64,000 nucleotides of DNA. Source: Patescibacteria group bacterium. Lineage in GTDB: Bacteria; Patescibacteriota; Minisyncoccia; Phycocordibacterales; DATDWN01. Each line of letters starts with the position of its first letter. The stretch's first letter is position 1. This document shows, in pieces, positions 35,526 through 57,216 of this stretch. The DNA is taken from assembly GCA_040384485.1 (NCBI GenBank), contig JAZKJH010000002.1:22235-86234 (forward strand), in the 5' to 3' direction. Under the pieces are notes generated by a model. That model searched no databases and was not told the origin of the DNA. It saw nothing but the letters and a program-made list of their open reading frames with translations. Made by a program: the position numbers and the translations under genes.

Positions 35526-35534
35526 AAAAAACCA

Positions 35535-40602: not shown

Positions 40603-40610
40603 TCGTTCAA

Positions 40611-40640: not shown

Positions 40641-40736
40641 TATAAGAAACAGATTTCCAAGAGGTGATCGAAGCACCCAGTAGGTTGCTTGAGAAAATAC
40701 AAAAGGATGCTACTATCTTTGTGGAGGTGTTTAGAA

Positions 40737-40948
40737 TGTGGACCATTGAATACGAAGGTAAATTCTACGGGGAATTCCGTGAAGACCAGTCCGCTATTAT
40801 GTTTTTGATAAACAGGGGCTGGCGATACCGCCCACGTAGATTTTCTCAGCGCAGGTATTTGAGAGGAGTGGGGAGTCGTCTTAAGATGGTTCAGGTTGTG
40901 TGGAAGGCAGGTTTCTTTATTGCTGAAGATCGAGAGCTACTTCCATAG
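40737..40948 (+). CDS. Small basic protein of unknown function, paralog B (MWTIEYEGKFYG...LLP); start taken at the internal ATG after a GGAGGTG RBS
   Basis: Clear N-terminal and C-terminal identity to paralog A. Confidence 0.4.
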
Positions 40949-40956
40949 AATTGTTG

Positions 40957-40996
40957 AATCCAGTGATAGCATCGTGCTGTTACTGGATTTTTTTAT
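40957..40996 (+). terminator. Intrinsic terminator atccagt-gatagcatcgtgctgtt-actggat followed by T8
   Basis: Hairpin and T-run. Confidence 0.55.
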
Positions 40997-41039
40997 TTGC
41001 CGACATTTCGGTGACGATTTGATATACTGGGATATATTT

Positions 41040-41708
41040 ATGCAAACATTTTTTGAGTCATACAAGAATTCTGGAGATTTGCACCATGCCTATTTTTTAG
41101 TGGGGGATACAAAACACATCCTCTCAAACCTTATCCCTTTCCTGAAGGATAAGGTAGGGGTGTCGGTCCAAGGTTCAGCAGATTTTTGGCATGGCAAGTT
41201 CCACAACATGACAGTGGAGGAGACAAAAAGCATCTACGCAATGTCACAAAACAAGGACTTCGCTCGAGGCAAAAAGATTTTTATAATTGAAACTGATTTT
41301 ATAACAGAGGAAGCTCAGAACACCATGCTCAAGTTTTTTGAAGAGCCTACCCCAGGCACTCACTTTTTTATTGTGTCACCTCAAGACTTTCTACTTCCTA
41401 CTTTGCAATCTAGAATAATCAAGATTCACACGATTGCTAGATCCTCGGAAACAAAAGAAAGTATCTTGAGTTTAAATTTAAAAGAAAGGATAGATAGAGT
41501 AAAAGTAATTACCGAGTCAATTAAGGACGACGAGGGCACAAAACAGGATGCCATAAGTTTGTTAAATGACATAGAAAAGGAACTCTATACTGATGGAGTA
41601 GAAAAAAACTATGACAGGTTGGAGTTATGTCAGAAAACTAGGCAATCTCTATATGATAGAGGTGCTCCAATTAAAATCGTGTTGGAAAACCTACTTATTT
41701 CAATTTAA
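41040..41708 (+). CDS. holB: DNA polymerase III delta'-like subunit (clamp-loader, inactive AAA+)
   Basis: HAYFLVGD (no P-loop Lys), Walker B-like FIIETD, SRC-like region TLQSRI. Confidence 0.55.
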   Translation: MQTFFESYKNSGDLHHAYFLVGDTKHILSNLIPFLKDKVGVSVQGSADFWHGKFHNMTVEETKSIYAMSQNKDFARGKKIFIIETDFITEEAQNTMLKFFEEPTPGTHFFIVSPQDFLLPTLQSRIIKIHTIARSSETKESILSLNLKERIDRVKVITESIKDDEGTKQDAISLLNDIEKELYTDGVEKNYDRLELCQKTRQSLYDRGAPIKIVLENLLISI

Positions 41709-41736
41709 AGGACGGTTATGTTAATATCATAGCCAT

Positions 41737-42288
41737 ATGGCATACAATTTTTCACCATTTAAAACTGCAACAAAGGACACTGAAGAGTGGCTAAAAAGAG
41801 AATACTCAGGGATAAGAACAGGAAGAGCAACTCCCGCTATACTTGATGTCGTTTCTGTAGAAGCCTACGGTTCAATGATGCCAATAAACCAAGTAGCAAA
41901 CATATCTGTAGAGGACGCTCGAATGATTCGTATTTCTCCTTGGGATGCAACTCAGGCAAAAGCTATAGAAAAAGCTATTATGCTTTCTGATCTTGGACTT
42001 TCAGTTACAGTGGACGACAAAGGTCTTCGTGTAGTTTTTCCAGATCTTACTTCAGAAAGAAGACTATCTCTTGTAAAAATAGCCAAACAAAAACTTGAGG
42101 ATGCGAAAATTACTATGAGAGGAGAGAGAGAAAAAGTGCTAAAGGATTTGGATAGACAGGAAAAAGAGGACGGAATGTCAAAGGACGATGTTTTTAGATA
42201 TAAAACTGAACTTCAGAAATTAATAGACGAATCAACTCGGGCACTTGAGGAGTTATTCGAAAAGAAAGAGAAAGAAATAACAGAATAA
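41737..42288 (+). CDS. frr: Ribosome recycling factor
   Basis: ...LKREYSGIRTGRATPAILDVVSVEAYGSMMPINQVANISVEDARMIRI... Confidence 0.9.
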   Translation: MAYNFSPFKTATKDTEEWLKREYSGIRTGRATPAILDVVSVEAYGSMMPINQVANISVEDARMIRISPWDATQAKAIEKAIMLSDLGLSVTVDDKGLRVVFPDLTSERRLSLVKIAKQKLEDAKITMRGEREKVLKDLDRQEKEDGMSKDDVFRYKTELQKLIDESTRALEELFEKKEKEITE

Positions 42289-42291
42289 TCC

Positions 42292-43389
42292 ATGTCTATA
42301 ATTTTATTTATCATAATTTTAGCTGTTTTAATTTTGGTTCACGAGTTCGGGCATTTTATCGTAGCCAAAAAATCAGGAGTAAGGGTTGATGAATTTGGCC
42401 TAGGATTTCCTCCAAAACTTTGGGCAAAAAAATTTGGTGATACATTATATACACTTAACGCGATACCGTTTGGGGGATTTGTGAAAATATTTGGAGAGGA
42501 TCCACACAGCACTGAGATAAAAGAAGAAGACAAAGCAACAAGTTTTTACTATAAGCCAAAATGGATCCAAGCTTCTATTCTTGTTGCAGGAGTAGTGTTC
42601 AACCTTATTTTTGCTTGGTTGCTGATTTCCGGAACATTTATGATGGGTGTGCCAGCTACAGAGGGTCATTCAAGGTGGGGAGAGGTGATGGACGCAAAAA
42701 TGTCCATAACTGCAGTTGCACCAGATTCACCAGCAGCACTTGGTGGTATTGAAACAGGCGACACAGTTCTATTTGTTTCTTCTGAGGTCGGTTTTGCTCA
42801 AGGGGAGAGTCTGACTGTTGAGAATATACAAAAAGTTATAAGTGAGAGTGAGAGTCAAGTTGAGATTTTATATAAAGATCCATCAGGCGTAACTCAAACT
42901 GCCTTTATTGAACCAACCTTAGACGATGCTTCTGGTAGAAAAGTAATAGGTGTTTCTTTAGACAAAGTCGGAATATTGAGACTACCTGTTCACTATGCTT
43001 TTCTAGAAGGTGCGCGTACTACATATTTATTTACAAAAGCTACTGCAATAGGTTTAGGTGACTTTTTGTGGAATGTTGTTACTTTTAAATCAGACTTTTC
43101 TCAAGTCTCTGGCCCTGTCGGTATCGCTGGCATAGTTGGGGAAGCAAGCGGACTAGGTTTGGTATACGTTTTGTCACTTGTTGCAGTCATCTCAATCAAC
43201 CTTGCTATTATCAATCTTGTACCTTTTCCTGCTCTTGATGGGGGAAGACTACTCTTTGTACTAATAGAGTCTATAACCAGGCGTCCAATCAATCCAAAAT
43301 TCGCAATCTGGGCTAACACTATAGGTTTCGTACTTCTTATTATTCTAATGATAGTAGTGACTGGACACGACATATTCCGCCTATTTTAA
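42292..43389 (+). CDS. rseP: Site-2 protease RseP-like (M50 zinc metalloprotease with a PDZ domain)
   Basis: HEFGHFIVAK HExxH, PDZ region, C-terminal LDGG motif. Confidence 0.8.
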   Translation: MSIILFIIILAVLILVHEFGHFIVAKKSGVRVDEFGLGFPPKLWAKKFGDTLYTLNAIPFGGFVKIFGEDPHSTEIKEEDKATSFYYKPKWIQASILVAGVVFNLIFAWLLISGTFMMGVPATEGHSRWGEVMDAKMSITAVAPDSPAALGGIETGDTVLFVSSEVGFAQGESLTVENIQKVISESESQVEILYKDPSGVTQTAFIEPTLDDASGRKVIGVSLDKVGILRLPVHYAFLEGARTTYLFTKATAIGLGDFLWNVVTFKSDFSQVSGPVGIAGIVGEASGLGLVYVLSLVAVISINLAIINLVPFPALDGGRLLFVLIESITRRPINPKFAIWANTIGFVLLIILMIVVTGHDIFRLF

Positions 43390-43432
43390 GCCATTTTTTG
43401 ACCTAACAGTTTTTTTAAGATAAGATTTAAGA

Positions 43433-44680
43433 ATGTTACAATCAAAGCTATTTACAAAAACAAGAAAGGAATTTCCAGCTGACGAAACTTCAAAAAATGC
43501 TCAGTTGCTAATACGTGCTGGTTTTATATATAAAGAAATGGCAGGTGTTTATTCCATAATGCCTTTAGGTTTGATGGTGGTAAATAAAATCAAGAAAGTT
43601 GTAAATGAGGAGATGAAGAAAGTAGGTTCTACTGAAATTATAATGTCTACTTTGCAAAACAAAGAGATTTGGGAAACTACAAACAGATGGGATGATAATA
43701 AAGTAGATGTCTGGTTTAAATCCGCATTGAAAAGCGGCGCTGAAGTTGGATTCGGTTGGTCTCATGAGGAACCTATTACAAATATGATGAAAGATCATAT
43801 TTCTAGTTATAACGATCTTCCAAGTTATGTACATCAGTTTCAAAATAAATTAAGAAACGAAGTTCGAGCGAAAAGCGGAATAATGCGCTGTAGAGAATTT
43901 ATCATGAAAGATATGTATTCCTACACTGTAAATGAGGAACAGCACATGGAGTTTTATAACAAAACTATTGAGGCCTACATGAATGTATATAGAAGCCTTG
44001 GATTAGGCGACATTACTTTCGTGACTTCTGCTTCTGGTGGTGTGTTTACCGATAAATTCAGTCACGAATTTCAAACATTGTGTGAAGCAGGTGAAGACAA
44101 TATATATGTTCATGCAGATGGAAAAACTGCTTTAAATGAAGAAGTTTTCAGTGATGAAATGCTAGAAAAACTAAACCTTAAAAAGGAGGATTTTAGTATT
44201 AAAAAAGCAGCAGAAGTCGGAAATATTTTTACATTCGGTACTGCAAAATGCGAAGAACTCGGACTGTATTTTAATGATAAGGATGGTGTTAAAAAACCAG
44301 TTTATCTTGGTTCATATGGAATAGGTATCACAAGGCTTGTTGGGGTTATGGCTGAAACTTTTTCTGATGAAAAGGGACTTGTTTGGCCAAAAGAAGTGGC
44401 GCCTTTCCGTGTGCACTTGGTTCGCCTAGGAGAAAGTGAATCCGTAAAAACTTTTGCAGATGAGTTGTATACACAGTTATTAGAAAAGAATATAGAAGTT
44501 CTCTATGACGATAGAGAGCTACGTCCTGGTGAGAAATTTGCTGACTCTGACCTTATCGGTATTCCTACCCGTTTTGTAGTGAGCGAAAAGACTGTAGCTG
44601 AGGGCAAGGTGGAGATTAAGGATAGAAAGAGTGGGGAGGTCGTGATTGTTTCAAAGGAAGAAGCGGTATCTTCATTGTAA
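43433..44680 (+). CDS. proS: Prolyl-tRNA synthetase (short form lacking the INS editing domain)
   Basis: LLIRAGFI...GVYSIMPLG and class II motifs, with a C-terminal anticodon-binding domain. Confidence 0.75.
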   Translation: MLQSKLFTKTRKEFPADETSKNAQLLIRAGFIYKEMAGVYSIMPLGLMVVNKIKKVVNEEMKKVGSTEIIMSTLQNKEIWETTNRWDDNKVDVWFKSALKSGAEVGFGWSHEEPITNMMKDHISSYNDLPSYVHQFQNKLRNEVRAKSGIMRCREFIMKDMYSYTVNEEQHMEFYNKTIEAYMNVYRSLGLGDITFVTSASGGVFTDKFSHEFQTLCEAGEDNIYVHADGKTALNEEVFSDEMLEKLNLKKEDFSIKKAAEVGNIFTFGTAKCEELGLYFNDKDGVKKPVYLGSYGIGITRLVGVMAETFSDEKGLVWPKEVAPFRVHLVRLGESESVKTFADELYTQLLEKNIEVLYDDRELRPGEKFADSDLIGIPTRFVVSEKTVAEGKVEIKDRKSGEVVIVSKEEAVSSL

Positions 44681-44741
44681 TTTTGTACTTGTTTATTCAC
44701 CTGTCCGCGCAGGCAGGTAATGTTTTCTATTCGTAATACTT

Positions 44742-45803
44742 ATGATTAAAAACTTTGAACAACTGAAAAGATTTCTTTCCAACGATATCGGTATCGACCT
44801 TGGTACCGCTAATACACTCGTGTATTTAAGTGGAAAAGGAATAGTTCTTAATGAACCATCTGTTGTGGCAGTAAACCAAAAGACTGGTCGTGTTGTTGCG
44901 GTAGGAAAAGATGCAAAGCAAATGTTGGGTAGAACACCTGGGCATATTCTAGCAGTCCGGCCACTAGTTGATGGTGTTATTTCTGACTTCGAAGTCACAG
45001 AGGAAATGATTACTTATCTTTTAAATAAGGCACAAAAAAATAACAAAAAACTTTTGGGTCCTCGTGTTGTGGTAGGAGTTCCATCTGGAGTTACAAACGT
45101 TGAGACACGAGCTGTGCGAGATGCAACAAAAAACGCAGGAGCAAGTGAGGTTCATATAGTGGAAGAACCAATGGCGGCTGCAATTGGAATAAGACTTCCT
45201 ATCATGGAACCAGTTGGAAACATGATTGTTGATATAGGGGGAGGAACTAGTGACATTGCTGTTATATCTTTGGGTGGAGTTGTACGCTCTAAAAATCTAC
45301 GAATTGCGGGGGACAAACTGAACAACGATATTATTTCGTATGTACGTGGTGAGTTTAAAATTTTAATAGGTGAAAAGACTGCAGAAAATATAAAAATATC
45401 CATCGGGGCTATTTTACCCGGCGATACACCACTTGAAGCTTCTATAAAAGGGCGTGACTTGATTTCCGGTTTGCCACGAGAAGTTATTATTACTGATTCT
45501 GATATTCGGGAAGCTATCTCACAGTCTATAGATACCCTGATAGAGTCGATCAAAGAAGTTTTAGAGACCACACCACCAGAGGTTTTGTCGGATATAATGC
45601 AGAGAGGAATGTATCTAACAGGTGGAGGCGCTCTTATCAATGGACTTGCTCCTCTTATTGAGGAATATACAAAAATTCCTGTTCATGTAGCTCCAGATCC
45701 ACTAACTGCTGTTTGTAGGGGTACAGGTATTATTTTGGAAAATGTAGAAAAATATAGAGATGTGCTAATAGCCAACGAAGATGAACTACCCCCTAAAAAG
45801 TAA
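44742..45803 (+). CDS. mreB: Rod shape-determining protein MreB (paralog 2)
   Basis: IGIDLGTANTLVY...NEPSVVAV...DIGGGTSD. Confidence 0.85.
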   Translation: MIKNFEQLKRFLSNDIGIDLGTANTLVYLSGKGIVLNEPSVVAVNQKTGRVVAVGKDAKQMLGRTPGHILAVRPLVDGVISDFEVTEEMITYLLNKAQKNNKKLLGPRVVVGVPSGVTNVETRAVRDATKNAGASEVHIVEEPMAAAIGIRLPIMEPVGNMIVDIGGGTSDIAVISLGGVVRSKNLRIAGDKLNNDIISYVRGEFKILIGEKTAENIKISIGAILPGDTPLEASIKGRDLISGLPREVIITDSDIREAISQSIDTLIESIKEVLETTPPEVLSDIMQRGMYLTGGGALINGLAPLIEEYTKIPVHVAPDPLTAVCRGTGIILENVEKYRDVLIANEDELPPKK

Positions 45804-46572
45804 ACCAGGGAAAAGTCCGAACAGAAATAAGATAATTTTAATAGCTGTTGTTTTCCTGATTCTTTTAGGTACATCTTTTTTCTTTGCCCCTTCAGCCCGT
45901 AGCGGAGGAAGGTCCGTGCTGACACCTCTTTGGTCAGTTAGAACTGCTGTTTTACGCCCATTTAGTGCCATAGGACAATTTTTTAGTTTTAAAACAACTC
46001 TTATAGAAAAAAACAAAGTCTTAGAGGAAGAGAATGCAACATTGAGATTAAAATCATTTGATTACGATATTTTGCTTCAGGAAAACGAAAGTCTAAAAAG
46101 TAGTTTGGGTAGAAAGGAGAATGAATCTTTTCTTTTTGCAAAAGTTTTATCAAAACCACCAGTTTCTCCATACGATACCTTAGTTTTAGATATCGGTTCG
46201 GAGGATGGGGTTATGCTCGGGAGTAAAGTTTATTTATCAAGCAATGTAATTATTGGTTTGGTAAAGAATGTGACACCAAAAACAGCCTTGGTTGAACTTT
46301 TTTCAAGTAGCTCACAAGAAAATCAACTAACAGTTCTGAGAACAGGTTCTTCGTTTTTAATTGCAGGAAAAGGTGGAGGAAATTTGCAGTTAGAGGTACC
46401 AAAAGACACGGATATTGTGTGGGGTGATGTGTTTGTTTATCCGGATCTAAAAACATCTGTTTTAGGTACTGTGTATTATGTTGATGCGACATCTCAAGGT
46501 TCTTTTAAAACCATACACATCCGACTTTTTGCAAATATTTTTGAAATTAATTCTGTGTTTGTTGCGCGCTAA
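45781..46572 (+). CDS. mreC: Rod shape-determining protein MreC
   Basis: N-terminal TM, coiled-coil (LEEENATLRLK) and a beta-rich C-terminal domain; overlaps the mreB end. Confidence 0.65.
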   Translation: MNYPLKSKPGKSPNRNKIILIAVVFLILLGTSFFFAPSARSGGRSVLTPLWSVRTAVLRPFSAIGQFFSFKTTLIEKNKVLEEENATLRLKSFDYDILLQENESLKSSLGRKENESFLFAKVLSKPPVSPYDTLVLDIGSEDGVMLGSKVYLSSNVIIGLVKNVTPKTALVELFSSSSQENQLTVLRTGSSFLIAGKGGGNLQLEVPKDTDIVWGDVFVYPDLKTSVLGTVYYVDATSQGSFKTIHIRLFANIFEINSVFVAR

Positions 46573-46623
46573 TAGGTTTTGCAAAAAACCTAATTTTAAG
46601 TAGTATATTCTACGGAGGTTTGC

Positions 46624-46944
46624 TTGGTAGATTTTGTTAAGGGATTCTTTTTTCATTGGAGGATTGGGTTGTTGTTGTGGGTGCTCACAGCACTAGGAGG
46701 ATGTTTAAAGTACTCCAACTACCTAGCTCTGTTCATGTTTGTGTCTGGTGGGTTGTTTGGTTATGTTACAAAATTTTATAAACTGAGCCGATCACAGTTT
46801 TTTGTTTTCTGTCTCTTTTTTCTTTGGAAATACGAAGCATTTATGTGGTATGTTGGCGGTTCATTCGAAAGCAGCTTACCCGAATTTGCTCTTGGCTCAG
46901 TTTTGTTTTTTATTGGCACTTTTCTTTACCGGTTTAAACCCTAA
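46624..46944 (+). CDS. Small polytopic membrane protein (possible MreD-like)
   Basis: Hydrophobic 106-aa ORF at the mreD position. Confidence 0.3.
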   Translation: MVDFVKGFFFHWRIGLLLWVLTALGGCLKYSNYLALFMFVSGGLFGYVTKFYKLSRSQFFVFCLFFLWKYEAFMWYVGGSFESSLPEFALGSVLFFIGTFLYRFKP

Positions 46945-46992
46945 CCCGCTCGGCAGATACCTGCTTACGAGCGGGTTTTCTGTTGTGTTACA

Positions 46993-47256
46993 ATGTGTCG
47001 TATGAATAGTAAAAGACTGAGGATGCTAGCTGGTGTAGTGTTACTTATTTCTATCACGTTTGTTCCGTGGTGGGTGTCTTTTTTGTTGATGCTTGCTGCC
47101 GTAGTGTATTTTTACCTGTATGTGGAAGTTTTGTTTCTCGCCTTTTTGTTAGATTTAGTTTATTCACCAGTGTCTACTTTCCCATACGCGCTGCTCTGTA
47201 CTGCATTTGTGGTTTTAGTTTTGTCCGTGTTAATAAAAAGTACAATTAGAAAATAG
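46993..47256 (+). CDS. Small polytopic membrane protein (possible MreD)
   Basis: Hydrophobic 87-aa ORF immediately upstream of PBP2. Confidence 0.3.
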   Translation: MCRMNSKRLRMLAGVVLLISITFVPWWVSFLLMLAAVVYFYLYVEVLFLAFLLDLVYSPVSTFPYALLCTAFVVLVLSVLIKSTIRK

Positions 47257-47257
47257 T

Positions 47258-48958
47258 ATGTTTCATCAATTTAAAAAATTTTTTAAACAAAGAAGATATA
47301 CAAGAAACAAGGATATTGATCCCGATGAGATTTTTTTGGATTCACAAAACTTACCGGATTTTGATGTCAGTCAGTTCGAAGGCACTATCGAAAAACCTAT
47401 TCCAAAAAGTACTTTGAAAGCCCTACTATCTTTTTTACTTCTTGTTGGGGTGTTGTTCGGTTGGAAAGTGTGGGATTTGCAGGTGGTCCAAGGAGAGGAA
47501 CTTAGAAAAAGAAGTGACAATAACAGCTTAAGAAGAATATATATATATGCCGACAGGGGAGTAATCCAAGACAGAAATGGAAAACCACTAGTTTCCAACA
47601 CCATAAACCCGAATTCTGAGGATTTTTCTTTGAGGGTGTATGAGGGGGGATCTGGGTTGTCTACTGTGTTGGGGTACTTAAAGTATCCAACAAAAGACTC
47701 TTCAGGATTTTATTATCAAACCAAATTTGAGCCAAAAGATGGAGTGGAAAAAATATATGATAGTCTGTTATCTGGTGAAAATGGTATCAAAATAATAGAG
47801 ACAGATGTAAAAGGCAGTGTGGTGTCTGAGAGTGTCGTTCAACAGCCGAGAAACGGAACAAATGTTGTGTTGTCTATTGATGCTGGCTTACAAAAGAAAC
47901 TATACGAGTCCATGCTCGATGTCGCAAACAGAGCTGGTTACAAAGGTGGTTCAGGAGTTATTATGGATGTGAGAACAGGAGAGATTTTAGCAATGAGTAG
48001 TTTTCCTGAGTACGATTCGGGAGTAATGACAGACGGCGGTGACTCTGCAAAGATATCAGGTTGGTTACGCGATACCAACTATCCGTTTTTGAACCGTGCA
48101 GTAAATGGGTTGTATACACCAGGCTCTATTATGAAGTTATTTGTTGGTTTAGGTGTATTGGAAGAAGGAGTTATAAATCCCAGCAAGCAAATATTGAGTA
48201 CCGGAACCATGACAGTTCCGAACCCGTTTTTTCCTGACAAGCCGTCCGTTTTTGTTGATTGGAAGGCACACGGACTAGTCGACTTTAGGCGTGCCATTGC
48301 GGTGTCTTCCAACATATATTTCTATCAAGTAACAGGAGGGTACGGAGATCAAAAAGGAATTGGAATTGATAATATTGGAAAGTATGCAAGCATGTTTGGT
48401 TTTGGGCAAAAAACTAATATTAATTTTCCAGGAGAAAAGAACGGTACTATACCTAGTCCCGAGTGGAAGGAAAAAAATTTTGAAGGTGAGATTTGGAGAC
48501 TAGGAGATACTTACAACACTTCTATTGGACAATATGGTTTTCAAGTCTCTCCATTACAAGCTGTGAGAGCTGTCGCAGCTTTGGCTAATGGAGGCAAGCT
48601 CTACACCCCAACTTTACTGAAAGAGGGCGGAGGAGACTTTACATCGCTTCCAGAGCTAAAAGAAAGCAGTTACCGAATAGTAAAAGAAGGTATGAGGCAA
48701 GGAGTAACGGAGGGTACTTCAGGATCCCTGAACTTTCCATTTGTAAAAGTGGCTTCTAAAACAGGTACAGCTCAAATAGGTGTAGGTAATACTGGCGTTA
48801 ACTCTTGGGTAGTGGGTTTTTGGCCATATGAGGATCCAAAATATGCTTACGCAATTGTTATGGAAAGAGGCTCTCTAAATAACCAGTTCGGAGCAACTTT
48901 GGTGATGTATGAATTCCTAAATTGGGCTAGTCTGTATGCAGAGGAGTACTTAAAATAG
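47258..48958 (+). CDS. mrdA: Penicillin-binding protein 2 (elongasome transpeptidase)
   Basis: SIMK (SxxK), SSN and KTGTAQ motifs; N-terminal TM plus dimerisation domain. Confidence 0.8.
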   Translation: MFHQFKKFFKQRRYTRNKDIDPDEIFLDSQNLPDFDVSQFEGTIEKPIPKSTLKALLSFLLLVGVLFGWKVWDLQVVQGEELRKRSDNNSLRRIYIYADRGVIQDRNGKPLVSNTINPNSEDFSLRVYEGGSGLSTVLGYLKYPTKDSSGFYYQTKFEPKDGVEKIYDSLLSGENGIKIIETDVKGSVVSESVVQQPRNGTNVVLSIDAGLQKKLYESMLDVANRAGYKGGSGVIMDVRTGEILAMSSFPEYDSGVMTDGGDSAKISGWLRDTNYPFLNRAVNGLYTPGSIMKLFVGLGVLEEGVINPSKQILSTGTMTVPNPFFPDKPSVFVDWKAHGLVDFRRAIAVSSNIYFYQVTGGYGDQKGIGIDNIGKYASMFGFGQKTNINFPGEKNGTIPSPEWKEKNFEGEIWRLGDTYNTSIGQYGFQVSPLQAVRAVAALANGGKLYTPTLLKEGGGDFTSLPELKESSYRIVKEGMRQGVTEGTSGSLNFPFVKVASKTGTAQIGVGNTGVNSWVVGFWPYEDPKYAYAIVMERGSLNNQFGATLVMYEFLNWASLYAEEYLK

Positions 48959-49021
48959 CTTTGACCAAACCCTTATTTTCTGATATACTTTCGTCATTAA
49001 ATTTAATTCATTTCAAAACCA

Positions 49022-49480
49022 ATGAACGAACACGAGTATTTGACACAAGAGAAATTTGAAGAATTCACAAAAGAGTTAGCTCATCTTAAAAATGTCAAAA
49101 GAAAGGAAGTTGCAGAAAATCTAGAGTATGCAAAGTCACTTGGCGACTTGGCTGAGAATGCAGAATACCACGAGGCAAGAGATGTACAAGGAACTGTAGA
49201 GGATAGAATAATGAAACTTGAGCATTTGCTAAAGTATGCAAAAATCGTATCTGCTAGTTCAGGTGGAGTTGTTAGTATTGGTTCTACTGTGACTGTAAAC
49301 AAAGATGGCAAGAAAACAGACTATATTATCGTAGGTTCAGAGGAATCAAACATTGCTGAAGGAAAGATATCCATGAAATCACCATTTGGACAGGCTATCT
49401 TGGGTAAAAAGAAGGGAGATGAATTTAGTTTCAATGCTCCGAGCGGGGAGGTTTCCTATACAATTGTAGACGTAAAATAA
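49022..49480 (+). CDS. greA: Transcription elongation factor GreA
   Basis: ...GDLAENAEYHEARD... acidic coiled-coil tip and a C-terminal FKBP-like domain. Confidence 0.85.
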   Translation: MNEHEYLTQEKFEEFTKELAHLKNVKRKEVAENLEYAKSLGDLAENAEYHEARDVQGTVEDRIMKLEHLLKYAKIVSASSGGVVSIGSTVTVNKDGKKTDYIIVGSEESNIAEGKISMKSPFGQAILGKKKGDEFSFNAPSGEVSYTIVDVK

Positions 49481-49488
49481 ACGAAACA

Positions 49489-49516
49489 ACAAAAACCCGC
49501 CACTGGCGGTTTTTTG
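49489..49516 (+). terminator. Intrinsic terminator acccgcc-act-ggcgggt? (ccgcc/ggcgg) followed by T6
   Basis: A5 ... hairpin ... T6. Confidence 0.6.
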
Positions 49517-49555
49517 TGCCTTTTAACTTTATAACACATACTATATACTTAAATT

Positions 49556-51013
49556 ATGGCATCACTAGAAGAAATAAGAGAGGGTAGAGTCGCAAAATTA
49601 GAACTATTAAGAAGTAAGGGAATCAATCCTTACCCAGCAAAGGTTCCGAGAGATTTTTCTATTGCTGAACTAAAAACAGATTTTGATAAAAAAATACAAG
49701 AAGCTAAGCCTGTTTCAGTAGCTGGAAGAGTTATGGTAAAGCGCGGACAAGGGGCAATACTTTTTGCTGTTATGTTCGACGGCACAGAAAAAGTTCAGGC
49801 TATTTTCAAAAAAGATGCTATGAGTGAAGAAAGTTTTGCACTTTTTGGAGACACAGTGGATATGGGAGATTTTATTTCCATAACAGGAGTTCCAATGGTT
49901 TCTAAAACTGGAGAGAACAGTATTATGGTAGATACTTGGCTTATGGCTTCTAAATCACTTCTTCCTTTGCCTGAAAAGTGGCATGGACTACAGGATGTGG
50001 AGGAAAGATACAGAAAGCGATACCTGGATTTTTTGATGAACGATGAGTTGCGAGATTTGATATTGAAAAAATCAAAGTTTTGGTCAGCAACCAGAAACTT
50101 TATGATTAAAAAAGGTTTTCTAGAAGTAGAAACACCAACCCTTGAGACTACTACAGGTGGAGCAGAGGCAACACCGTTTAAAACCCACCACAACGATTTT
50201 GACCTGGATGTTTATATGCGTATTTCTATAGGAGAGTTGTGGCAGAAAAGACTCATGGCCGGTGGTTTTCCTAAAACTTTTGAAATAGGGAGGGCTTATA
50301 GAAACGAGGGAACTAGTCCTGAACATGCTCAGGAGTTTACTAACATGGAGTTTTACTGGTCTTTTGCTGACTTTAATGACGGAATGAACTTGGTTCGCGA
50401 AATGTACATCGAAATAGCTAATGAAGTTTTTGGTACTACAAAGTTCACTGCAAAAGGTCACACATTTGATTTGGGAGACGAGTGGACCAAAATAGATTAT
50501 GCTGGAGAAGTTTTAAAACAAACAGGCATAGATATTCACAGTGCCACGATGGAGGATATGGAGAAAAAGCTTCAAGAGCTTGGTGTAAAATATGATGGAG
50601 AAAATCGAGAGAGGCTTATGGATACTTTGTGGAAGTACTGCAGGAAAAACATTTCTGGTCCAGCTTTCCTAATAAACCACCCAACTATCGTAGCTCCACT
50701 TGCAAAAAGTAATGTTGACGGCAAAACAGTACAGAGATTTCAGCCTATTTTTGCGGGGAGTGAAGTGGGTAACGGTTACTCAGAGTTGAACGACCCAATA
50801 GATCAGCGAAATAGATTTGAAGAACAACAAAAACTAATAGACAAAGGAGATACAGAAGCTATGATGGCCGACTATGAATTCGTAGAGATGCTAGAACACG
50901 GAATGCCACCTACATGTGGTTTTGGTTTCGGGGAAAGAATGTTTGCAATCCTTGCAGACAAACCATTACGTGAACTACAAGCATTTCCACTCATGAGACC
51001 AAAAAGCGACTAG
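49556..51013 (+). CDS. lysS: Lysyl-tRNA synthetase (class II)
   Basis: N-terminal OB anticodon-binding domain and class II motifs (..FLEVETP.., ..GFGFGERM..). Confidence 0.9.
   Translation: MASLEEIREGRVAKLELLRSKGINPYPAKVPRDFSIAELKTDFDKKIQEAKPVSVAGRVMVKRGQGAILFAVMFDGTEKVQAIFKKDAMSEESFALFGDTVDMGDFISITGVPMVSKTGENSIMVDTWLMASKSLLPLPEKWHGLQDVEERYRKRYLDFLMNDELRDLILKKSKFWSATRNFMIKKGFLEVETPTLETTTGGAEATPFKTHHNDFDLDVYMRISIGELWQKRLMAGGFPKTFEIGRAYRNEGTSPEHAQEFTNMEFYWSFADFNDGMNLVREMYIEIANEVFGTTKFTAKGHTFDLGDEWTKIDYAGEVLKQTGIDIHSATMEDMEKKLQELGVKYDGENRERLMDTLWKYCRKNISGPAFLINHPTIVAPLAKSNVDGKTVQRFQPIFAGSEVGNGYSELNDPIDQRNRFEEQQKLIDKGDTEAMMADYEFVEMLEHGMPPTCGFGFGERMFAILADKPLRELQAFPLMRPKSD
50937..50997 (+). repeat. 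Direct repeat copy 1: the functional 3' end of lysS
   Basis: gaatgtttgcaatccttgcagacaaaccattacgtgaactacaagcatttccac... is repeated at 51401..51458. Confidence 0.7.
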
Positions 51014-51035
51014 TACTTATTAAGTTATCTAGATT

Positions 51036-51311
51036 ATGAGTCCAAAATTTAAAACAATATTATCTACCGTTCTTCTGTTGGCTATCATACCTGTCTGGTT
51101 TTGGAGTTTATTGATGGCAATGCTTACAGATGGCAGAGTTTGTTACGGTAGTGATGTTTGTTGGTATTCAGTATACTTTAGTTTGTATATTTTACCTCTT
51201 ACTCCGATCGCATATGTTACATATCTAATAACAAAAAAAGATATCTACTTTTATATTATTTTGAGTTTGTTTGGTTTTGCATGCCTAGCTTTTTTATTGA
51301 TGACTTTATAA
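51036..51311 (+). CDS. Small three-TM membrane protein located between the duplicated lysS 3'-end segments
   Basis: Hydrophobic 91-aa ORF. Confidence 0.35.
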   Translation: MSPKFKTILSTVLLLAIIPVWFWSLLMAMLTDGRVCYGSDVCWYSVYFSLYILPLTPIAYVTYLITKKDIYFYIILSLFGFACLAFLLMTL

Positions 51312-51400
51312 CAAACAAATGTAAGTAATATTTCTGCAATACACTTGGAGAATTTATTAACTGAATAAATAATTAGTAACATAAGCTGATTTTATAGAGA

Positions 51401-51458
51401 GAATGCTCGCAATCCTTGTAGACAAACCATTACGTGAACTACAAGCATTTCCATTGAG
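51401..51458 (+). repeat. Direct repeat copy 2: an orphan, slightly diverged fragment of the lysS 3' end (would encode ...ERMLAILVDKPLRELQAFPL...), with no upstream ORF
   Basis: About 93% identity to 50937..50992; in-frame stops lie immediately upstream. Confidence 0.7.
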
Positions 51459-51536
51459 GTGTCGTAATACAGTATAAAATTTGTTTTTCCTGGGGATGGA
51501 CTACTGTACCTAGATCTGATAGTCTTTTTCACAGAG

Positions 51537-51848
51537 GTGAAAATGTTCGAGTCAGTCAGGGAATTTCTTGCCAAATATAACATCAGTTTGTGGTCAACCG
51601 CTGAGAGCAAACCGAAGGAAGTCAAAAGACTGTATTTTGACTTCTCAGAAGCTGGATGGAATAGGCTGGTTGAGCTGTCAGAAGCTGCAGATCAGACACC
51701 CCAAGCTTTCGCGATCGATGCGATGCGGGAGTCCATGCTGTTTCGAGATCTTTTGGCCACAGCCAAAGCACAAGGCCACGATTTAGTCGTGGGGGTCATC
51801 CACGAAGACGGTTCTGCAGAAGAGATACCGCTTTTCAAAGCACAGTAA
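51537..51848 (+). CDS. Hypothetical protein (GC-rich island)
   Basis: GC-rich 103-aa ORF followed by a terminator. Confidence 0.35.
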   Translation: MKMFESVREFLAKYNISLWSTAESKPKEVKRLYFDFSEAGWNRLVELSEAADQTPQAFAIDAMRESMLFRDLLATAKAQGHDLVVGVIHEDGSAEEIPLFKAQ

Positions 51849-51854
51849 TTTTAA

Positions 51855-51888
51855 GGTCCTAACTACATCAGTAGTTGGGGCCTTTTTG
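51855..51888 (+). terminator. Imperfect hairpin aggtcctaactac/gtagttggggcct followed by T5
   Basis: About 13-bp stem with two mismatches or wobbles. Confidence 0.45.
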
Positions 51889-51986
51889 TTATCCACATAT
51901 AGAGTGGGATGCGGTGTTTCACAGTGGGAAGGAGTGGTATATAATGTTATCTAAGTGGGAAAGAGTGGGAAATTAATAAAAATGAA

Positions 51987-52421
51987 ATGCTCATAGGCGA
52001 ATACACACACGCAATAGACGATAAAAACAGATTGTCTTTGCCTGCAAAGTTTCGAAAAATAATGGGCAAGAAAGTTTATATAACTCCAGGACTCGATTCT
52101 TGCTTGTTCGTTTTTACACCAAAAGAGTGGGAGAAAATAGAAGAGAAACTTTCCCAATCTTCGATGGGTCAATCTGACAGTAGAAGTTTCAGTAGACATA
52201 TGTTTGCTGGTGCATCTGAAGCAGAGGTCGACTCTATTGGTCGTATACTCGTTCCTGATTTTCTACGAGAAAAAGCAAACCTAAAAAGCAAATGCGTGAT
52301 TATAGGTGTCTCAAGTAGAGTAGAAATATGGAATGAGAAAACTTGGATCGAGTATAAAAAGGTTGTTGAAAAACAAGCTGACAATCTCGCTGAAAAGTTG
52401 GGACAAGTAGGAGTGATTTAA
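51987..52421 (+). CDS. mraZ: Transcriptional regulator MraZ
   Basis: Two DxxxR-type repeats (DDKNRLSLP...; DSIGRILVP). Confidence 0.85.
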   Translation: MLIGEYTHAIDDKNRLSLPAKFRKIMGKKVYITPGLDSCLFVFTPKEWEKIEEKLSQSSMGQSDSRSFSRHMFAGASEAEVDSIGRILVPDFLREKANLKSKCVIIGVSSRVEIWNEKTWIEYKKVVEKQADNLAEKLGQVGVI

Positions 52422-52422
52422 T

Positions 52423-53322
52423 ATGATCCACAAATCAGTTCTTTTACATGAATCAATAGATGGTTTGGAAATAAAGAAAGGTGATGTTTTTGTTGATGGA
52501 ACTCTAGGCAACGGAGGACACACTGAAATTGTTGCAAAAAGGTTTGGCGATGCCGTTGTCATGATCGGTATCGACCTTGATCCTGAAGCTATATCACGCA
52601 CAAAGGAGCGTCTCGCTCCACTAAATGTGTCAGTAAAGTTTGCAGAAGAGAGTTTTCGCCACATAGATAAAGTTATAAAGTCGCTCGGTGTGGCCCAAGT
52701 AGACAAAATACTTTTAGACATCGGCCTTTCATCAAACCAGTTTGAAGAGTCAGGAAGGGGATTTTCTTTTCAAAAGAATGAACCTTTGATTATGTCTTTT
52801 AAAAAAGACCTAACTGAGAACGACCTGACAGCTCGAGAGATAGTAAACACCTGGGAGGCAGAAAACATCCAGGCGATACTATCTGGCTACGGTGAAGAAC
52901 AGTTTGCTTGGAAGATAGCCAAAGCAATAGTTGCCAGAAGGGAAGAAAGTCCTATTGAAACAACCTTTGACTTGGTGGAGATAATCAAAATAGCAACACC
53001 AAAGTTCTATCATCACAGAAAGATTCACCCAGCTACTAAAACATTCCAAGCTCTTCGTATCGCTGTGAACGACGAGTTGGAGAGCTTGAAGGATGGGTTG
53101 AAGAATGGTTTTGACTCACTCTCAGTCGGCGGAATGATTGCGGTCATATCTTTCCATAGTTTGGAGGACCGCATAGTAAAAAGGTTTTTTAAAGAAAAGG
53201 AAGAAAGCGAAAAAGGTGAGAGGGTTACCAAAAGACCTGTGACTGCCAAGGATTCAGAGTTAAAAGAGAATCCAAGAGCACGAAGTGCAAAACTAAGGAT
53301 ATTTAAGAAAACAGCGAACTAA
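52423..53322 (+). CDS. rsmH: 16S rRNA (cytosine1402-N4)-methyltransferase RsmH/MraW
   Basis: HKSVLLHE...DGTLGNGGHT SAM-binding motif. Confidence 0.85.
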   Translation: MIHKSVLLHESIDGLEIKKGDVFVDGTLGNGGHTEIVAKRFGDAVVMIGIDLDPEAISRTKERLAPLNVSVKFAEESFRHIDKVIKSLGVAQVDKILLDIGLSSNQFEESGRGFSFQKNEPLIMSFKKDLTENDLTAREIVNTWEAENIQAILSGYGEEQFAWKIAKAIVARREESPIETTFDLVEIIKIATPKFYHHRKIHPATKTFQALRIAVNDELESLKDGLKNGFDSLSVGGMIAVISFHSLEDRIVKRFFKEKEESEKGERVTKRPVTAKDSELKENPRARSAKLRIFKKTAN

Positions 53323-53352
53323 ATTATTAATTAACAAATACATATAAAAGTT

Positions 53353-53676
53353 ATGACAGAAAAGATTTTAAGTAAGGTTTCAACTTTGGACAAAGAGAGA
53401 GTGTTGTTTTGGGCCATGTTGTCGCTACTTGTTTTGTGTGCTGGTTTTTACATGTATTTCATAAACTCTACAGTTTACAATACTGTCGCGAGACAAAACT
53501 TTGAGACAGAGGCTTCAGCTCTTGCTCTAGAGATAGGAAAGGATGAATTTTCATATATAGCAAAAAGAAACACCATAACTGTGGATTTGGCTTATACACT
53601 AGGTTTCAAGGATGTTGCGGTGAAAAAATATGTTACACGAGGAAGTAGTGACAAGTTTGCATTCTTAGATAGATAG
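53353..53676 (+). CDS. FtsL-like small single-TM division protein (assigned by position)
   Basis: 107-aa ORF with one TM, lying between rsmH and ftsI. Confidence 0.4.
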   Translation: MTEKILSKVSTLDKERVLFWAMLSLLVLCAGFYMYFINSTVYNTVARQNFETEASALALEIGKDEFSYIAKRNTITVDLAYTLGFKDVAVKKYVTRGSSDKFAFLDR

Positions 53677-53736
53677 GTTTTTGTAGGTTTGTTAATCCTC
53701 CGTTTTCTGAGATAATAGAGCGAACCTAATATTTTA

Positions 53737-55440
53737 ATGAAAAGTAATACCAGAATACGTATTATCTCAATTTTTGTGTTTGCATTCGCTCTCGTGTTAA
53801 TAGGGAGATTGTATTTTGTGCAAATAGTTAACCATGACCTTTATATACAAAAGGGTGATAAACAGTACTCATCTACCTCAAAAAAAGTTTTTGACCGTGG
53901 GACCATATTCTTTCAAAACAAGGATGGTAGCTTAGTGTCTGCTGCCACTCTAAAATCTGGATACATAGTCGCCATAAATCCTGAGGTGCTTAAAAATCCT
54001 GATGATGCTTGGAAAAAGTATAACGAGATACTGCCAACAGAGCGGGATGTGTTTATGCAAAAAGTTGCTAAGAAAAATGACACGTATGAGGAGCTGGCTC
54101 AAAGAGTGGATACAGAGGTGGGTGAAAAAATTAATGCTTTAAAGATACCAGGGCTCCAAGCATACAAAGAAAGGTGGAGGTTTTACCCAGGTGGAAATAC
54201 TGCTAGTCGAGTTGTTGGGCTTTTGGGTTACAAAGGTGATGAATATGCAGGACGTTACGGTCTTGAACGGCAGTATGAAAACAATATGCTGAGACAGGAT
54301 GGAGGGTACGTAAACTTTTTTGCAGAAATTTTTTCTGACATAAAATCTTTCGCTGAGGAAAAAGGAGAAGTAGAGGCGGATATTGTAACTACTATAGAAC
54401 CGGCCTTACAATCATATTTGCAAGGGATTTTGAAAGAAACAACTCAGAAGTTCGGAGCAGAAACTATGGGTGGGATTATTATGAACCCTAAAACAGGGGA
54501 GATATATGCTATGGATGTTTATCCAACATTCGACCCCAACAATACCCAGGCTGAAAAGGATATAACGGTTTTTTCTAACCCTTTGGTTGAAAACGTATAC
54601 GAGATGGGTTCGGTAATAAAACCACTCACGGTTTCTGCAGGACTTGATGCTGGAGTTATTAAGGCGAGTACCACTTACTATGATCCGGGGTATCTTGTGG
54701 TGAACAACAAAAGAATATCTAACTTTGATGGTAAGGAAAGAGGGATGGTGGATATTCAGGAAGCACTGTCTCAGTCCCTAAACGTTGGGATGGCAAAGAT
54801 AACTAGTTTACTTGGTAACAAACTTTTTTCTGAGTATATGTATTCGTTTGGGATAGGTGAAAAAACTGGGATTGATTTGCCAAACGAAGGTAGAAACCTG
54901 GTGGATAACCTAAAGAGTCCGAGAGATATAGAGCATGTTACTGCTTCGTTCGGGCAGGGTTTGGCTTTAACTCCTATTTCCACAATACGTTCTTTGGCAG
55001 TTCTGGCAAACGGTGGATTTTTGGTAGAGCCACATGTGGTAAAAAGTATAAACTACAAGATAGGAATATCTAAAACTATAGAACCAAAAACTATACGACA
55101 AGTATTAAAACGAGAAACAACAGAAGAGATATCTCGAATGATGGTACATAGTATGGACAAGGTTTTGCTTGAAGGTAAGCTCAAATTGCCAAACTATAGT
55201 GTGGCCGTAAAAACAGGAACAGCTCAGATGGCAAAACCAGGTGGAGTCGGAGGGTATTACGATGATAAATTTTTACACTCGTTTGTAGGTTATTTCCCAG
55301 CATACGACGCCAAGTTTATTGTGTTCATGTACGTTATTAACCCTAGAGGAGTTAGATACGGATCCGAGACACTTTCCCAGCCATTTGCCGATCTGACAAA
55401 CTTTATCATCAACTACTACGAGGTGCCCCCAGACAGATAG
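53737..55440 (+). CDS. ftsI: Peptidoglycan D,D-transpeptidase FtsI (PBP3-like)
   Basis: N-terminal TM, SVIK (SxxK), SQSLN (SxN) and KTGTAQ motifs. Confidence 0.8.
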   Translation: MKSNTRIRIISIFVFAFALVLIGRLYFVQIVNHDLYIQKGDKQYSSTSKKVFDRGTIFFQNKDGSLVSAATLKSGYIVAINPEVLKNPDDAWKKYNEILPTERDVFMQKVAKKNDTYEELAQRVDTEVGEKINALKIPGLQAYKERWRFYPGGNTASRVVGLLGYKGDEYAGRYGLERQYENNMLRQDGGYVNFFAEIFSDIKSFAEEKGEVEADIVTTIEPALQSYLQGILKETTQKFGAETMGGIIMNPKTGEIYAMDVYPTFDPNNTQAEKDITVFSNPLVENVYEMGSVIKPLTVSAGLDAGVIKASTTYYDPGYLVVNNKRISNFDGKERGMVDIQEALSQSLNVGMAKITSLLGNKLFSEYMYSFGIGEKTGIDLPNEGRNLVDNLKSPRDIEHVTASFGQGLALTPISTIRSLAVLANGGFLVEPHVVKSINYKIGISKTIEPKTIRQVLKRETTEEISRMMVHSMDKVLLEGKLKLPNYSVAVKTGTAQMAKPGGVGGYYDDKFLHSFVGYFPAYDAKFIVFMYVINPRGVRYGSETLSQPFADLTNFIINYYEVPPDR

Positions 55441-55442
55441 TT

Positions 55443-56738
55443 ATGGATTATTTAAAACAAACAGCAAAAAAAATACTGCAATGGCAAGCAAAACGAGTGT
55501 TGCAAAAATATAACCCAAAGATAGTGGGGATTATTGGAGCAGTTGGAAAGACTGTTACGAAAGAAACCATATATACTGTTTTGTCTAAAAAAGTCTTTGT
55601 TCGTAAGTCTGAAAAAAGTTTTACTACAGAAGTAGGAGTCCCTTTAACCATACTTGGTCACGCATATGGCACAAACACACTTTTAGAGTGGTTACAGTGT
55701 ATTTTTTCTGGACTCAATTTGATTTTATTTAAAAAGACCTACCCAGAATGGCTTGTTTTAGAACTAGATAGCGACAAGCCAGGAGACCTGGAAGGAGTGA
55801 GTTCTTGGGTTAAACCGGATATATTAGTGGTAACTGCTATTGGAACGGTACCATCACATATAGAGTCTTTTGGGGATATTGAGAATTTTGTTAGGGAAAA
55901 GAGTTTTATGGTAGACGCGGTAAAGAGAGAGGGAGTCATTATTTACAATTCAGACGATGTGTTGGTGGAGAATCTAGTGAAGGATTCTGAAGTTAGAAAA
56001 GTATCCTGTGGAACAAACCCTTTAGCAAATATCAAAGGAGGGGAGCTCGAAATGTTGCTTGGGGGAAAAGACAGCTCAGTTCTCACGGGAATGAAATTTA
56101 ATATAATTTATCGAAAGAAAGAGTACTCTGTTTCTAGACTAGAGTGTGTAGGTATTCACATCGAATACGCTTCACTTCTAGCTTTTGCAGTTGGGCACGA
56201 GTTTCATTTTTCTTCCAAGGATATTGTTACATCCCTAAACAAAGTAAAACCTCTGCAGGGGCGTTCACGAATAATTCAAGGAATAAAAAATTCTGTACTA
56301 GTAGACGATACTTACAATGCTTCGCCACTGGCCACTCGAGAGTTTGTTGGTTTGCTAGGAAAAATAAATACAAATACTAGAAAAGTTTTAATTTTGGGAG
56401 ACATGTTGGAGCTCGGAAAGTATTCGGCAGTGGAGCACAGGAGTCTTGCAGTTTTAGTAAAACAAAATGCTAATTTTGTAGTTACTGTTGGATTTAGAAT
56501 GAGGAAACTAGTGGACGAGCTTTTGAACGAAGGATTTGATGAATCATTAATAATTTCTTTTGACTCGGTAGAAGAGGCCAATAAAACTATGGATAGTCTG
56601 ATACAGGAAGGGGATGTTGTTCTGGTAAAGGGTTCACAAGCGATGCGAATGGAAAAACTAGTGGAGGAGGTAATGCGACACCCAGAGGACGCAAAAAAAG
56701 TTTTGGTTAGACAAGAAGAGGAATGGATGAGTAGATAA
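55443..56738 (+). CDS. murF: Mur ligase, MurF-like (UDP-MurNAc-tripeptide--D-Ala-D-Ala ligase)
   Basis: GIIGAVGKTVTKE P-loop and the DDTYNASP motif typical of MurF. Confidence 0.65.
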   Translation: MDYLKQTAKKILQWQAKRVLQKYNPKIVGIIGAVGKTVTKETIYTVLSKKVFVRKSEKSFTTEVGVPLTILGHAYGTNTLLEWLQCIFSGLNLILFKKTYPEWLVLELDSDKPGDLEGVSSWVKPDILVVTAIGTVPSHIESFGDIENFVREKSFMVDAVKREGVIIYNSDDVLVENLVKDSEVRKVSCGTNPLANIKGGELEMLLGGKDSSVLTGMKFNIIYRKKEYSVSRLECVGIHIEYASLLAFAVGHEFHFSSKDIVTSLNKVKPLQGRSRIIQGIKNSVLVDDTYNASPLATREFVGLLGKINTNTRKVLILGDMLELGKYSAVEHRSLAVLVKQNANFVVTVGFRMRKLVDELLNEGFDESLIISFDSVEEANKTMDSLIQEGDVVLVKGSQAMRMEKLVEEVMRHPEDAKKVLVRQEEEWMSR

Positions 56739-56740
56739 AG

Positions 56741-56774
56741 AAACACCACCCTTTAGAGGTGGTGTGTTTTTTTT
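56741..56774. terminator. Bidirectional terminator acaccaccc-ttta-gaggtggtgt? (acaccacc/ggtggtgt) followed by T9
   Basis: Hairpin flanked by A- and T-runs between convergent genes. Confidence 0.65.
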
Positions 56775-57108
56775 AGCTGTACATTCCTTTTCGGTGTAGA
56801 TCCAGCTTCATTGTGATTTGCGGATCTGTAATTTTTTTGAATCGTGGAACAGTCTCACCATTCACGGTGACTGTTTCCATCCACATTTCAAGTGGTCGCA
56901 AGTCAAAAAGCTGACCATTTACATACACGGAGGCCTCCGGGTACAAGGGCCTGTAGATGACCATGTTTGCGTCTTCAGGTCTGCAATTGTCTTCTGTGTG
57001 GCAACCAACCCCTACAAGCTCGTAGGCATAGTTGTTCACAGATACGGTAGGGTCGTGTTTGTAGTGGTAATAATAACCACGCTCTGGAACTTGTGTCGGT
57101 ATTTTCAT
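56773..57108 (-). CDS. DUF1653-domain protein with a C-terminal extension
   Basis: ...GYYYHYKHDP...YELVGVGCHTE...MVIYRPLY pattern. Confidence 0.45.
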   Translation of the reverse strand: MKIPTQVPERGYYYHYKHDPTVSVNNYAYELVGVGCHTEDNCRPEDANMVIYRPLYPEASVYVNGQLFDLRPLEMWMETVTVNGETVPRFKKITDPQITMKLDLHRKGMYS

Positions 57109-57216
57109 AATTTCTCCTTTTGGAGTTTAGCATTTTGGTGGATGATTTCCAACACCGTTACTTAACTGTGAGTATTTACAATTAATTAAATAAATGGCAT
57201 ATTAAAAAAGGAAACA

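Follow-up and report, generated by a model that had tools for sequence, protein, structure and literature searches.

A second lysS gene end beside an orphan small-protein gene in a Patescibacteria genome looks like a recombination scar

How does an uncultured bacterium with a small genome come to carry, a few hundred nucleotides (nt) behind an intact lysyl-tRNA synthetase gene, a second copy of the end of that gene, and where does the small gene enclosed between the two ends come from? The question is raised by the lysS locus in a 64,000-nt stretch of DNA, here called the window, from a Patescibacteria group bacterium (assembly GCA_040384485.1, contig JAZKJH010000002.1, positions 22,235 to 86,234 of the forward strand). 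An original prediction, made from the sequence of the window, had taken the arrangement for the footprint of an element integrated at the 3' end of lysS. Our analysis indicates that the locus has the look of a recombination scar, at which two alternative modules from behind lysS were joined, one with a 91-amino-acid (aa) open reading frame (ORF91) and the other with a second, unrelated gene (ORF103).

The lysS gene occupies positions 49556-51013 of the plus strand, as do all features of the locus described below, and encodes an intact class II lysyl-tRNA synthetase of 485 aa (Pfam tRNA-synt_2, 1.9e-63, together with an OB anticodon-binding domain). Inside the gene lies the first copy of a direct repeat of 57 nt (50933-50989 and 51397-51453), in which 53 of 57 positions are identical and whose copies start 464 nt apart. 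All four mismatches lie among the 23 nt at its start, and the remaining 34 nt form a core of perfect identity (50956-50989 and 51420-51453). A scan of the 64 kb with a 45-nt pattern, allowing up to three mismatches, found two sites only, which are the two repeat copies, while none of 100 shuffled controls contained any match (chance expectation 0). The predicted recurrence of the last 60 nt or so of lysS at about 93% identity therefore describes a real repeat, recovered by self-comparison of the window with just two copies. Its coordinates had been 4-8 nt off, and the wording was inexact, since copy 1 stops 24 nt short of the gene end (the stop codon ends at 51013) and leaves the last eight codons including the stop (L M R P K S D stop, 50990-51013) outside the well-matched repeat.

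The distal copy extends somewhat further than the repeat. A profile built from the terminal 300 nt of the lysS genes of 60 relatives, run with nhmmer against the window, matches 51395-51466 (E 4.9e-14) with an envelope of 51386-51477. On the basis of this match and envelope, a 91-nt alignment of the two ends and the translation, we identify the orphan copy as a pseudo-lysS 3' end of about 83 nt (51395-51477) that holds copy 2 of the repeat. It translates as ...ERMLAILVDKPLRELQAFPLRCRNTV followed by an in-frame stop, at a distance equal to that of the real gene. A third lysS end past ORF103, which would have made ORF103 an older cassette flanked by attachment (att) sites, was found by neither the pattern nor the profile search.

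The two ends differ sharply as protein. LysS is 91% identical to the protein of L081, the closest relative, and 93% identical to that of another relative, L083. The C-termini of all 80 genome relatives compared end in FPLM[RK]P and a few further residues, and the working end of the window's gene, FPLMRPKSD followed by the stop, is family-typical. The orphan copy instead reads FPLRCRNTV and stop, so that the M-[RK]-P invariant in all 80 relatives is broken. To the right of the core Met-Arg-Pro has become Arg-Cys-Arg, and to the left of it three further family invariants are broken (Gly to Asp, Gly to Ile, and Phe to Leu).

Within the 57 nt, five states are common to both copies and different from L081, and the private changes are few, two in copy 1 (GAA, GCA) and two in copy 2 (CTC). 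The copies are consequently each other's closest relatives, and the five shared states indicate that both derive from the window's own lineage or from a close relative. The lysS tail CTCATGAGACCAAAA matches the native tail of L083, CTAATGAGACCAAAA, at 14 of 15 positions, a match that codon bias could explain. A sliding comparison along lysS with 12 relatives gave no clear recombination signal in the form of a shift near the 3' end.

It is important to establish that the repeat is not a product of assembly, given that the sequence belongs to a metagenome-assembled genome (MAG) in which two strain variants of the lysS downstream region might have been joined into a chimera. The Logan contig SRR26324625_629160 (17,969 nt), an independent assembly of the same strain, is 100% identical to window 33017-50985. 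It stops at the repeat, leaving the path through ORF91 without an independent span. However, its final position, 50985, is also that of the last 31-mer that occurs in copy 1 alone. Logan assembly uses k=31, and the contig supports the repeat because a graph of that word size breaks where the exact 34-nt core has a second context, which is precisely where this contig ends. Collapse of an overlap could not, moreover, have produced imperfect copies, the second of which is preceded by non-lysS sequence of its own and carries substitutions (CTC) that the first lacks. We consider an artefact the least probable of the origins weighed here, and a very remote one. The same contig starts inside a tRNA-Asn gene and ends inside repeat copy 1, and both loci are thus break points of the independent assembly.

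Comparison with relatives places the repeat in a region of rapid turnover. The comparison covered 163 related lysS loci, of which 80 came from genomes and 80 from metagenomes, the others being L081, L083 and L085. The gene order PBP-greA-lysS-gap-mraZ-rsmH-ftsL-PBP (PBP, penicillin-binding protein) is kept in most of them where the contig reaches, and the gap between lysS and mraZ measures 116-3479 nt and holds unrelated cargo across the 163 loci. This gap is a hypervariable slot. No integrase was seen in it in the related loci, and a second copy of their own lysS end occurs in 0 of 163, so that lysS does not emerge as a recurrent attachment site in the clade. Since the slot turns over in these loci with no scar of a lysS tail, the usual course seems to be clean replacement by way of the conserved flanks, with the scarred event in the window as an exception. 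In six relatives (L004, L009, L015, L026, L064 and L090) LysS itself does not stop after FPLM[RK]P but continues with an additional C-terminal domain of about 135-145 aa, which has the motifs ...AIIN.G..LE.WQ...AHL...FGARSKK.LFKFDS.KT... and resembles a fusion at the variable slot.

The closest relative reveals what was added. In L081, lysS is followed by a homologue of ORF103 and then by mraZ, and both ORF91 and the repeat are absent; the surrounding genes stand in the order found in the window. BLASTN aligns L081 3794-7916 with window 46879-50995 and L081 7854-13592 with window 51397-57132, and the 63 nt of the L081 lysS end (7854-7916) therefore align to both copies in the window (50933-50995 and from 51397). 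This double alignment of a single piece means that the window carries 464 extra nt. The unoccupied site is present in L081, where a single lysS end stands directly before the ORF103 homologue, and the alignment identifies ORF91 and the extra lysS end as the apparent novelty of the window relative to L081. The comparison of lysS downstream regions that the original prediction had proposed as a check thus supports a lineage-specific event, with an empty arrangement in L081 and the repeat in none of the 163 relatives. In L083, whose MraZ is identical to that of the window, the slot holds only a terminator and about 200 nt, with neither ORF91 nor ORF103.

ORF91 (51036-51311) was correctly predicted between the copies as a 91-aa ORF with three transmembrane (TM) segments; its hydropathy profile has three hydrophobic segments, and its guanine-cytosine (GC) content is 31%. 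An AT-rich spacer follows (51312-51394, 22% GC) and ends at a single novel joint (about 51386-51397); it has no similarity to related loci, phages or plasmids. The unique insert amounts to 383 nt, of which ORF91 is the sole ORF. This small protein is an orphan. Among 5.8 billion proteins its only match is itself (NCBI V4690_00705, from the Patescibacteria group bacterium MAG, as is ORF103, V4690_00710, the contig measuring 331,679 nt), and it has no Pfam or PHROG match. Searches with tblastn in 165 related loci and in viral contigs gave nothing, the 1-kb locus has no match among phages and plasmids, and exact-protein look-ups of LysS, ORF91, ORF103 (both candidate starts) and RsmH returned no records. 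Because ORF91 has no terminator of its own and no strong promoter, its sequence context suggests that it is probably expressed by read-through from lysS.

Could ORF91 have arisen in place? A tandem duplication of the lysS-ORF103 unit was rejected as its source, the two genes having no similarity and GC contents of 31% versus 48%. A purely local origin would otherwise require that the lysS end was duplicated by slippage or repair and that ORF91 was born de novo in AT-rich DNA between the copies. Low GC, orphan status and hydrophobic residues typical of T-rich DNA are what such a birth would leave, and the copies are indeed each other's closest relatives. Slippage, however, leaves its copies in tandem, whereas here unrelated DNA separates them; neither the window nor the relatives contain a source for the 383 unique nt; and a stop-free run as long as that of ORF91 (92 codons) appeared in only 32 of 5000 shuffles. 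We regard this origin as quite unlikely. The insert also lacks the marks of a transposon or insertion sequence, with no inverted repeats at its ends, no transposase, and a duplication of 57-83 nt where such elements leave a short one of fixed length.

The gene beyond the second copy has a different history. The prediction of a GC-rich ORF with its own terminator in this position is borne out (ORF103, 51543-51848, 101 aa from its best start, the ATG at 51543; 48% GC against 38.7% in the window), but its assignment to the cargo of an island is not. A search of 1.84 billion representative proteins returned only one homologue of ORF103, P0002 (59% identity, E 1.4e-31), which is ORF99 of L081 and is encoded directly between lysS and mraZ there. 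Because this only homologue occupies the same position in a relative that has no repeat, ORF103 is not part of the insertion and is the older of the two genes in the slot. Differences between ORF103 and P0002 number 28, 21 and 60 at codon positions 1, 2 and 3, a pattern that indicates a real gene under purifying selection. Its intergenic leader (51478-51542, with a Shine-Dalgarno sequence GAGGTG) is collinear with the lysS-ORF99 spacer of L081. From the repeat end to the ATG there are 89 nt in the window and 90 nt in L081, and the last 50 nt or so of the leader are homologous. An intrinsic terminator (51853-51890, a 14-pair stem and then a T run) closes the lysS-ORF91-ORF103 unit, and L081 has an equivalent one after ORF99.

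This lineage-restricted protein could be assigned to no family. ORF103 has no Pfam match and one weak PHROG match (phrog_8557, E 1.3e-3), a sequence search of PDB gave only a chance-level match to a lectin (E 0.64), and it was absent from viral contigs. Its AlphaFold model is poor (predicted local distance difference test, 59.8), Foldseek returned nothing below E 0.07, and a ribbon-helix-helix-like reading of its beta-alpha-alpha residues 29-62 was not supported. Downstream, the window becomes homologous to L081 and L083 again from 51889, within the mraZ promoter. This conserved region (51889-51986), in which repeated GTGGGA boxes surround an 11/12 promoter match at 51918-51945, is the right edge of the variable slot and probably the MraZ operator. 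It leads into mraZ (51987-52421; Pfam MraZ, 1.6e-35; synteny across relatives), the first gene of the conserved cell-division cluster.

From the repeat, the 464 nt gained relative to L081, the older standing of ORF103 and the lack of an integrase, we infer both a route and the possible directions of transfer. Homology-anchored recombination with one illegitimate joint is the most likely route, and we put it forward tentatively, at a little short of an even chance. One module would consist of the lysS end, ORF103 and terminator, as in L081, and the other of a lysS end and ORF91; joined out of register, they would give lysS, ORF91 and spacer, followed by pseudo-lysS, ORF103 and mraZ. The process would most likely start with the uptake of DNA from a close relative. 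At one end, homologous recombination would occur in a conserved flank, either lysS or mraZ, and at the other end illegitimate sealing would attach DNA that ends in the AT-rich spacer behind ORF91 at about position -83 of the second lysS end, creating the single novel joint. The proximal lysS end would remain under selection, and the distal copy would be a non-functional, decaying relic. We prefer this route because the slot turns over free of scars in the 163 relatives, no integrase was found, and the displaced module is collinear with that of a relative.

The direction of transfer would leave no trace in the product. An identical final sequence would result whether a lysS-ORF103 genome took up DNA of a lysS-ORF91 haplotype, with the anchor in lysS, or a lysS-ORF91 genome took up DNA of a lysS-ORF103 haplotype, with the anchor in mraZ. 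The predicted insertion that supplied a working gene end may be one of several routes to what is observed. The same sequence may also have resulted from a crossover at or after the stop codon, or from an ORF103 module that entered a lysS-ORF91 genome together with a piece of the donor lysS end.

The process envisaged would be homology-facilitated illegitimate recombination, which has been proposed for orphan arrays behind type VI secretion system (T6SS), Rhs and contact-dependent inhibition (CDI) genes (PMC5361080). The displacement arrays of Rhs, CdiA and T6SS loci described there resemble the lysS locus in several respects. A conserved upstream anchor gene has a new module placed beside it, the older module is pushed downstream and preceded by a fragment of the anchor 3' end, and in other genomes that older module lies directly behind the anchor. 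Here, too, conserved anchors flank a variable downstream slot, and pseudo-lysS precedes ORF103 while L081 has ORF99 directly behind lysS, as expected of 3'-end displacement. Unlike in those arrays, the anchor is a housekeeping aminoacyl-tRNA synthetase and not a polymorphic toxin, the locus records a single displacement, its cargo has no toxin or immunity features, and no donor was identified.

Several considerations weigh against this route. Homology-facilitated illegitimate recombination deletes more often than it duplicates, and it is a rare process. Its rarity is noted in the study of the orphan arrays (PMC5361080). ORF91 is an orphan, and a donor genome with lysS followed by ORF91 was not found in the collections searched. 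A tRNA-Asn locus 16 kb away has a similar layout with pseudo-tRNA ends and looks more like the product of site-specific integration. A further difficulty is the repeat core. Along the 91 aligned nt of the two lysS ends, mismatches by segment number 5/10, 4/23, 0/34 and 13/24, so that the core (0/34) contrasts with flanks in which 22/57 positions (39%) differ (Fisher p = 6e-6); the similarity of the tails (11/24) is modestly above chance (p = 0.02). Such an island of identity is predicted neither by plain neutral decay of a displaced end nor by a fresh clean duplication. It requires either conversion of copy 2 by copy 1, or a core kept by selection in the way of an attachment site, or gene tails that travel with the downstream cassette at crossovers in the conserved part. 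General conservation was rejected as its cause, as the core ranks 202 among 270 lysS windows, and the longest exact match of a relative to the window in the repeat region (29 nt) is located elsewhere than the core.

Another idea is that the orphan fragment is retained for a function, for example as an RNA element or as part of the leader or promoter of ORF103. It precedes ORF103 by 65-89 nt within the same transcription unit, and the perfect core amid flanks that differ at 39% of positions would fit such a role. Yet it has no Rfam match and no promoter match and is unique to this genome, and L081 expresses the ORF103 homologue from an ordinary lysS end. We consider a retained function very doubtful.

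The identity island also fits the main rival explanation, to which we allow a substantial minority chance and in which a non-autonomous mini-element was inserted at the lysS 3' end by site-specific integration. The element would be a 464-bp unit made of ORF91 and a lysS-like attachment site, resembling cis-mobilizable elements (CIMEs), which are decayed derivatives of integrative elements (PMC5704250), and its integrase would have acted in trans or since been lost. The 34-nt core would then be the shared att core and the lysS-like arms the element's mimic of the gene end. The layout fits attL and attR at the 3' end of a conserved gene with the gene end intact, and perfect identity amid diverged lysS-like flanks resembles attP/attB homology. 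LysS invariants are lost from the pseudo-copy to the left and to the right of the core, as is possible for a mimic that was never functional. Furthermore, the lysS 3' end is a known target of the tyrosine integrases of streptococcal integrative and conjugative elements (ICEs), which produce direct repeats of 13-17 bp (PMC4701971). The same genome, finally, has integrase-less cassettes bounded by pseudo-tRNA-Asn ends, one of which is 86% identical to the related locus L167 (3500-4400), where flanking genes are only about 70% identical.

Other findings speak against such an element. No integrase or recombinase was detected in or near the insert, nor among 20 of the larger window ORFs scanned against Pfam, a scan that was not exhaustive. 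The lysS-end repeat is missing from all 163 related loci, the 34-mer core had no match in viral contigs and the 29-mer core none in metagenome contigs, and the insert is unmatched in phages, plasmids and viral contigs, with no autonomous relative carrying a cognate integrase found. A crossover inside the core predicts a native distal tail, whereas RCRNTV is read there, and decay would still be needed. No sequence is common to the lysS and tRNA-Asn repeats, the similarity between the two cassettes and their repeats amounting to an 11-mer (E 0.07). The locus shares with ICEs and CIMEs its direct repeats, one of them inside a gene 3' end, a functional gene end and an empty site in a relative, and with CIMEs an insert that has no integration or transfer genes, its repeats being candidate att sites only. 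It differs from the streptococcal lysS elements in the length of the repeat (57-83 nt versus 13-17 bp) and in a unit of only 464 bp. What stands of the predicted integration footprint is a lineage-specific insertion at the lysS 3' end relative to L081, with no integrase found and no second case among the related loci.

The tRNA-Asn locus (window 32491-33062, minus strand) has the same layout as the lysS locus. Its 64-nt repeat (32931-32994 and 32491-32554, 89% identical) takes in the final 5 nt of the tRNA, where it begins, and the terminator. Between the copies lie a 45-aa ORF with two TM segments (32745-32608) and a pseudo-tRNA 3' end (about 32830-32870), and GC-richer ORFs follow beyond the repeat. 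In L167 the pseudo-tRNA end occurs at least three times. In L168 (6013-6683) a decayed HAD-hydrolase gene occupies the slot, and the sequence becomes homologous to the window again immediately beyond repeat copy 2 (window 32495). Considered together with the lysS locus, this points to small membrane-protein genes as frequent cargo of such slots.

These parallels raise a broader idea, which we consider improbable, namely that this Patescibacteria group harbors integrase-less miniature cassettes made of a small membrane-protein gene and a decoy anchor 3' end. They would insert repeatedly behind conserved genes such as lysS and tRNA-Asn, pushing older cargo outward, with the 34-nt core as recombination site; this insertion scheme is likewise improbable. 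Like an integron cassette, the lysS insert is a promoterless single ORF with a recombination-site-like 3' sequence, placed behind an expressed platform with older content pushed distally. Unlike one, it comes with no IntI found and no attC structure or R'/R'' cores, and its 'site' is the copy of a protein-gene end. By inspection the pseudo-end contains no GTTRRRY-type core, only an imperfect inverted repeat of 7-11 nt with a 17-nt loop. If true, such cassettes would constitute an integron-like accretion system that uses a housekeeping gene end as its platform.

Other features of the window and its relatives were recorded in passing. In L166 (3549-4098) and L167 (4394-4622) the tRNA-Asn anticodon loop is interrupted by a group I intron (RF00028, 63.5 and 57.2 bits); the split tRNA halves are 100% identical to the window's own tRNA-Asn, which is intron-free, and the L166 intron holds a 107-aa ORF. 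Two copies of an element of about 90 nt, 82% identical, occur at window 1200-1295 and 4387-4482 (plus strand). The element folds into a long closed branched hairpin (-31.3 and -31.5 kcal/mol, z = -5.8) whose closing stem remains paired despite changes in both of its arms; it belongs to no Rfam family, and a terminator-like hairpin with a T run was seen by eye behind copy 1. It is a candidate for an undescribed structured RNA. Several ORFs of 43-51% GC, against 38.7% in the window, lie at 2990-3628, 11201-12400, 29369-30065, 31120-32438 and 37602-38501. The last encodes a Band_7/SPFH protein, and a 132-aa ORF (31494-31892) has only a sub-threshold Nfu_N match. Most of these GC-rich ORFs, including those for proteins of 399 and 212 aa, have no significant Pfam match, and they may be further acquired genes.

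The lysS locus reads as an ordinary recombination footprint of a known kind, found in a little-studied phylum, and it reveals no new mechanism. It provides a dated, base-resolved example of gene gain by an uncultured bacterium with a small genome, in which a new gene came to lie in a hypervariable slot between conserved genes and a scar marks the joint. The pseudo-lysS end can serve as a marker for excision or for strain variants in read data.

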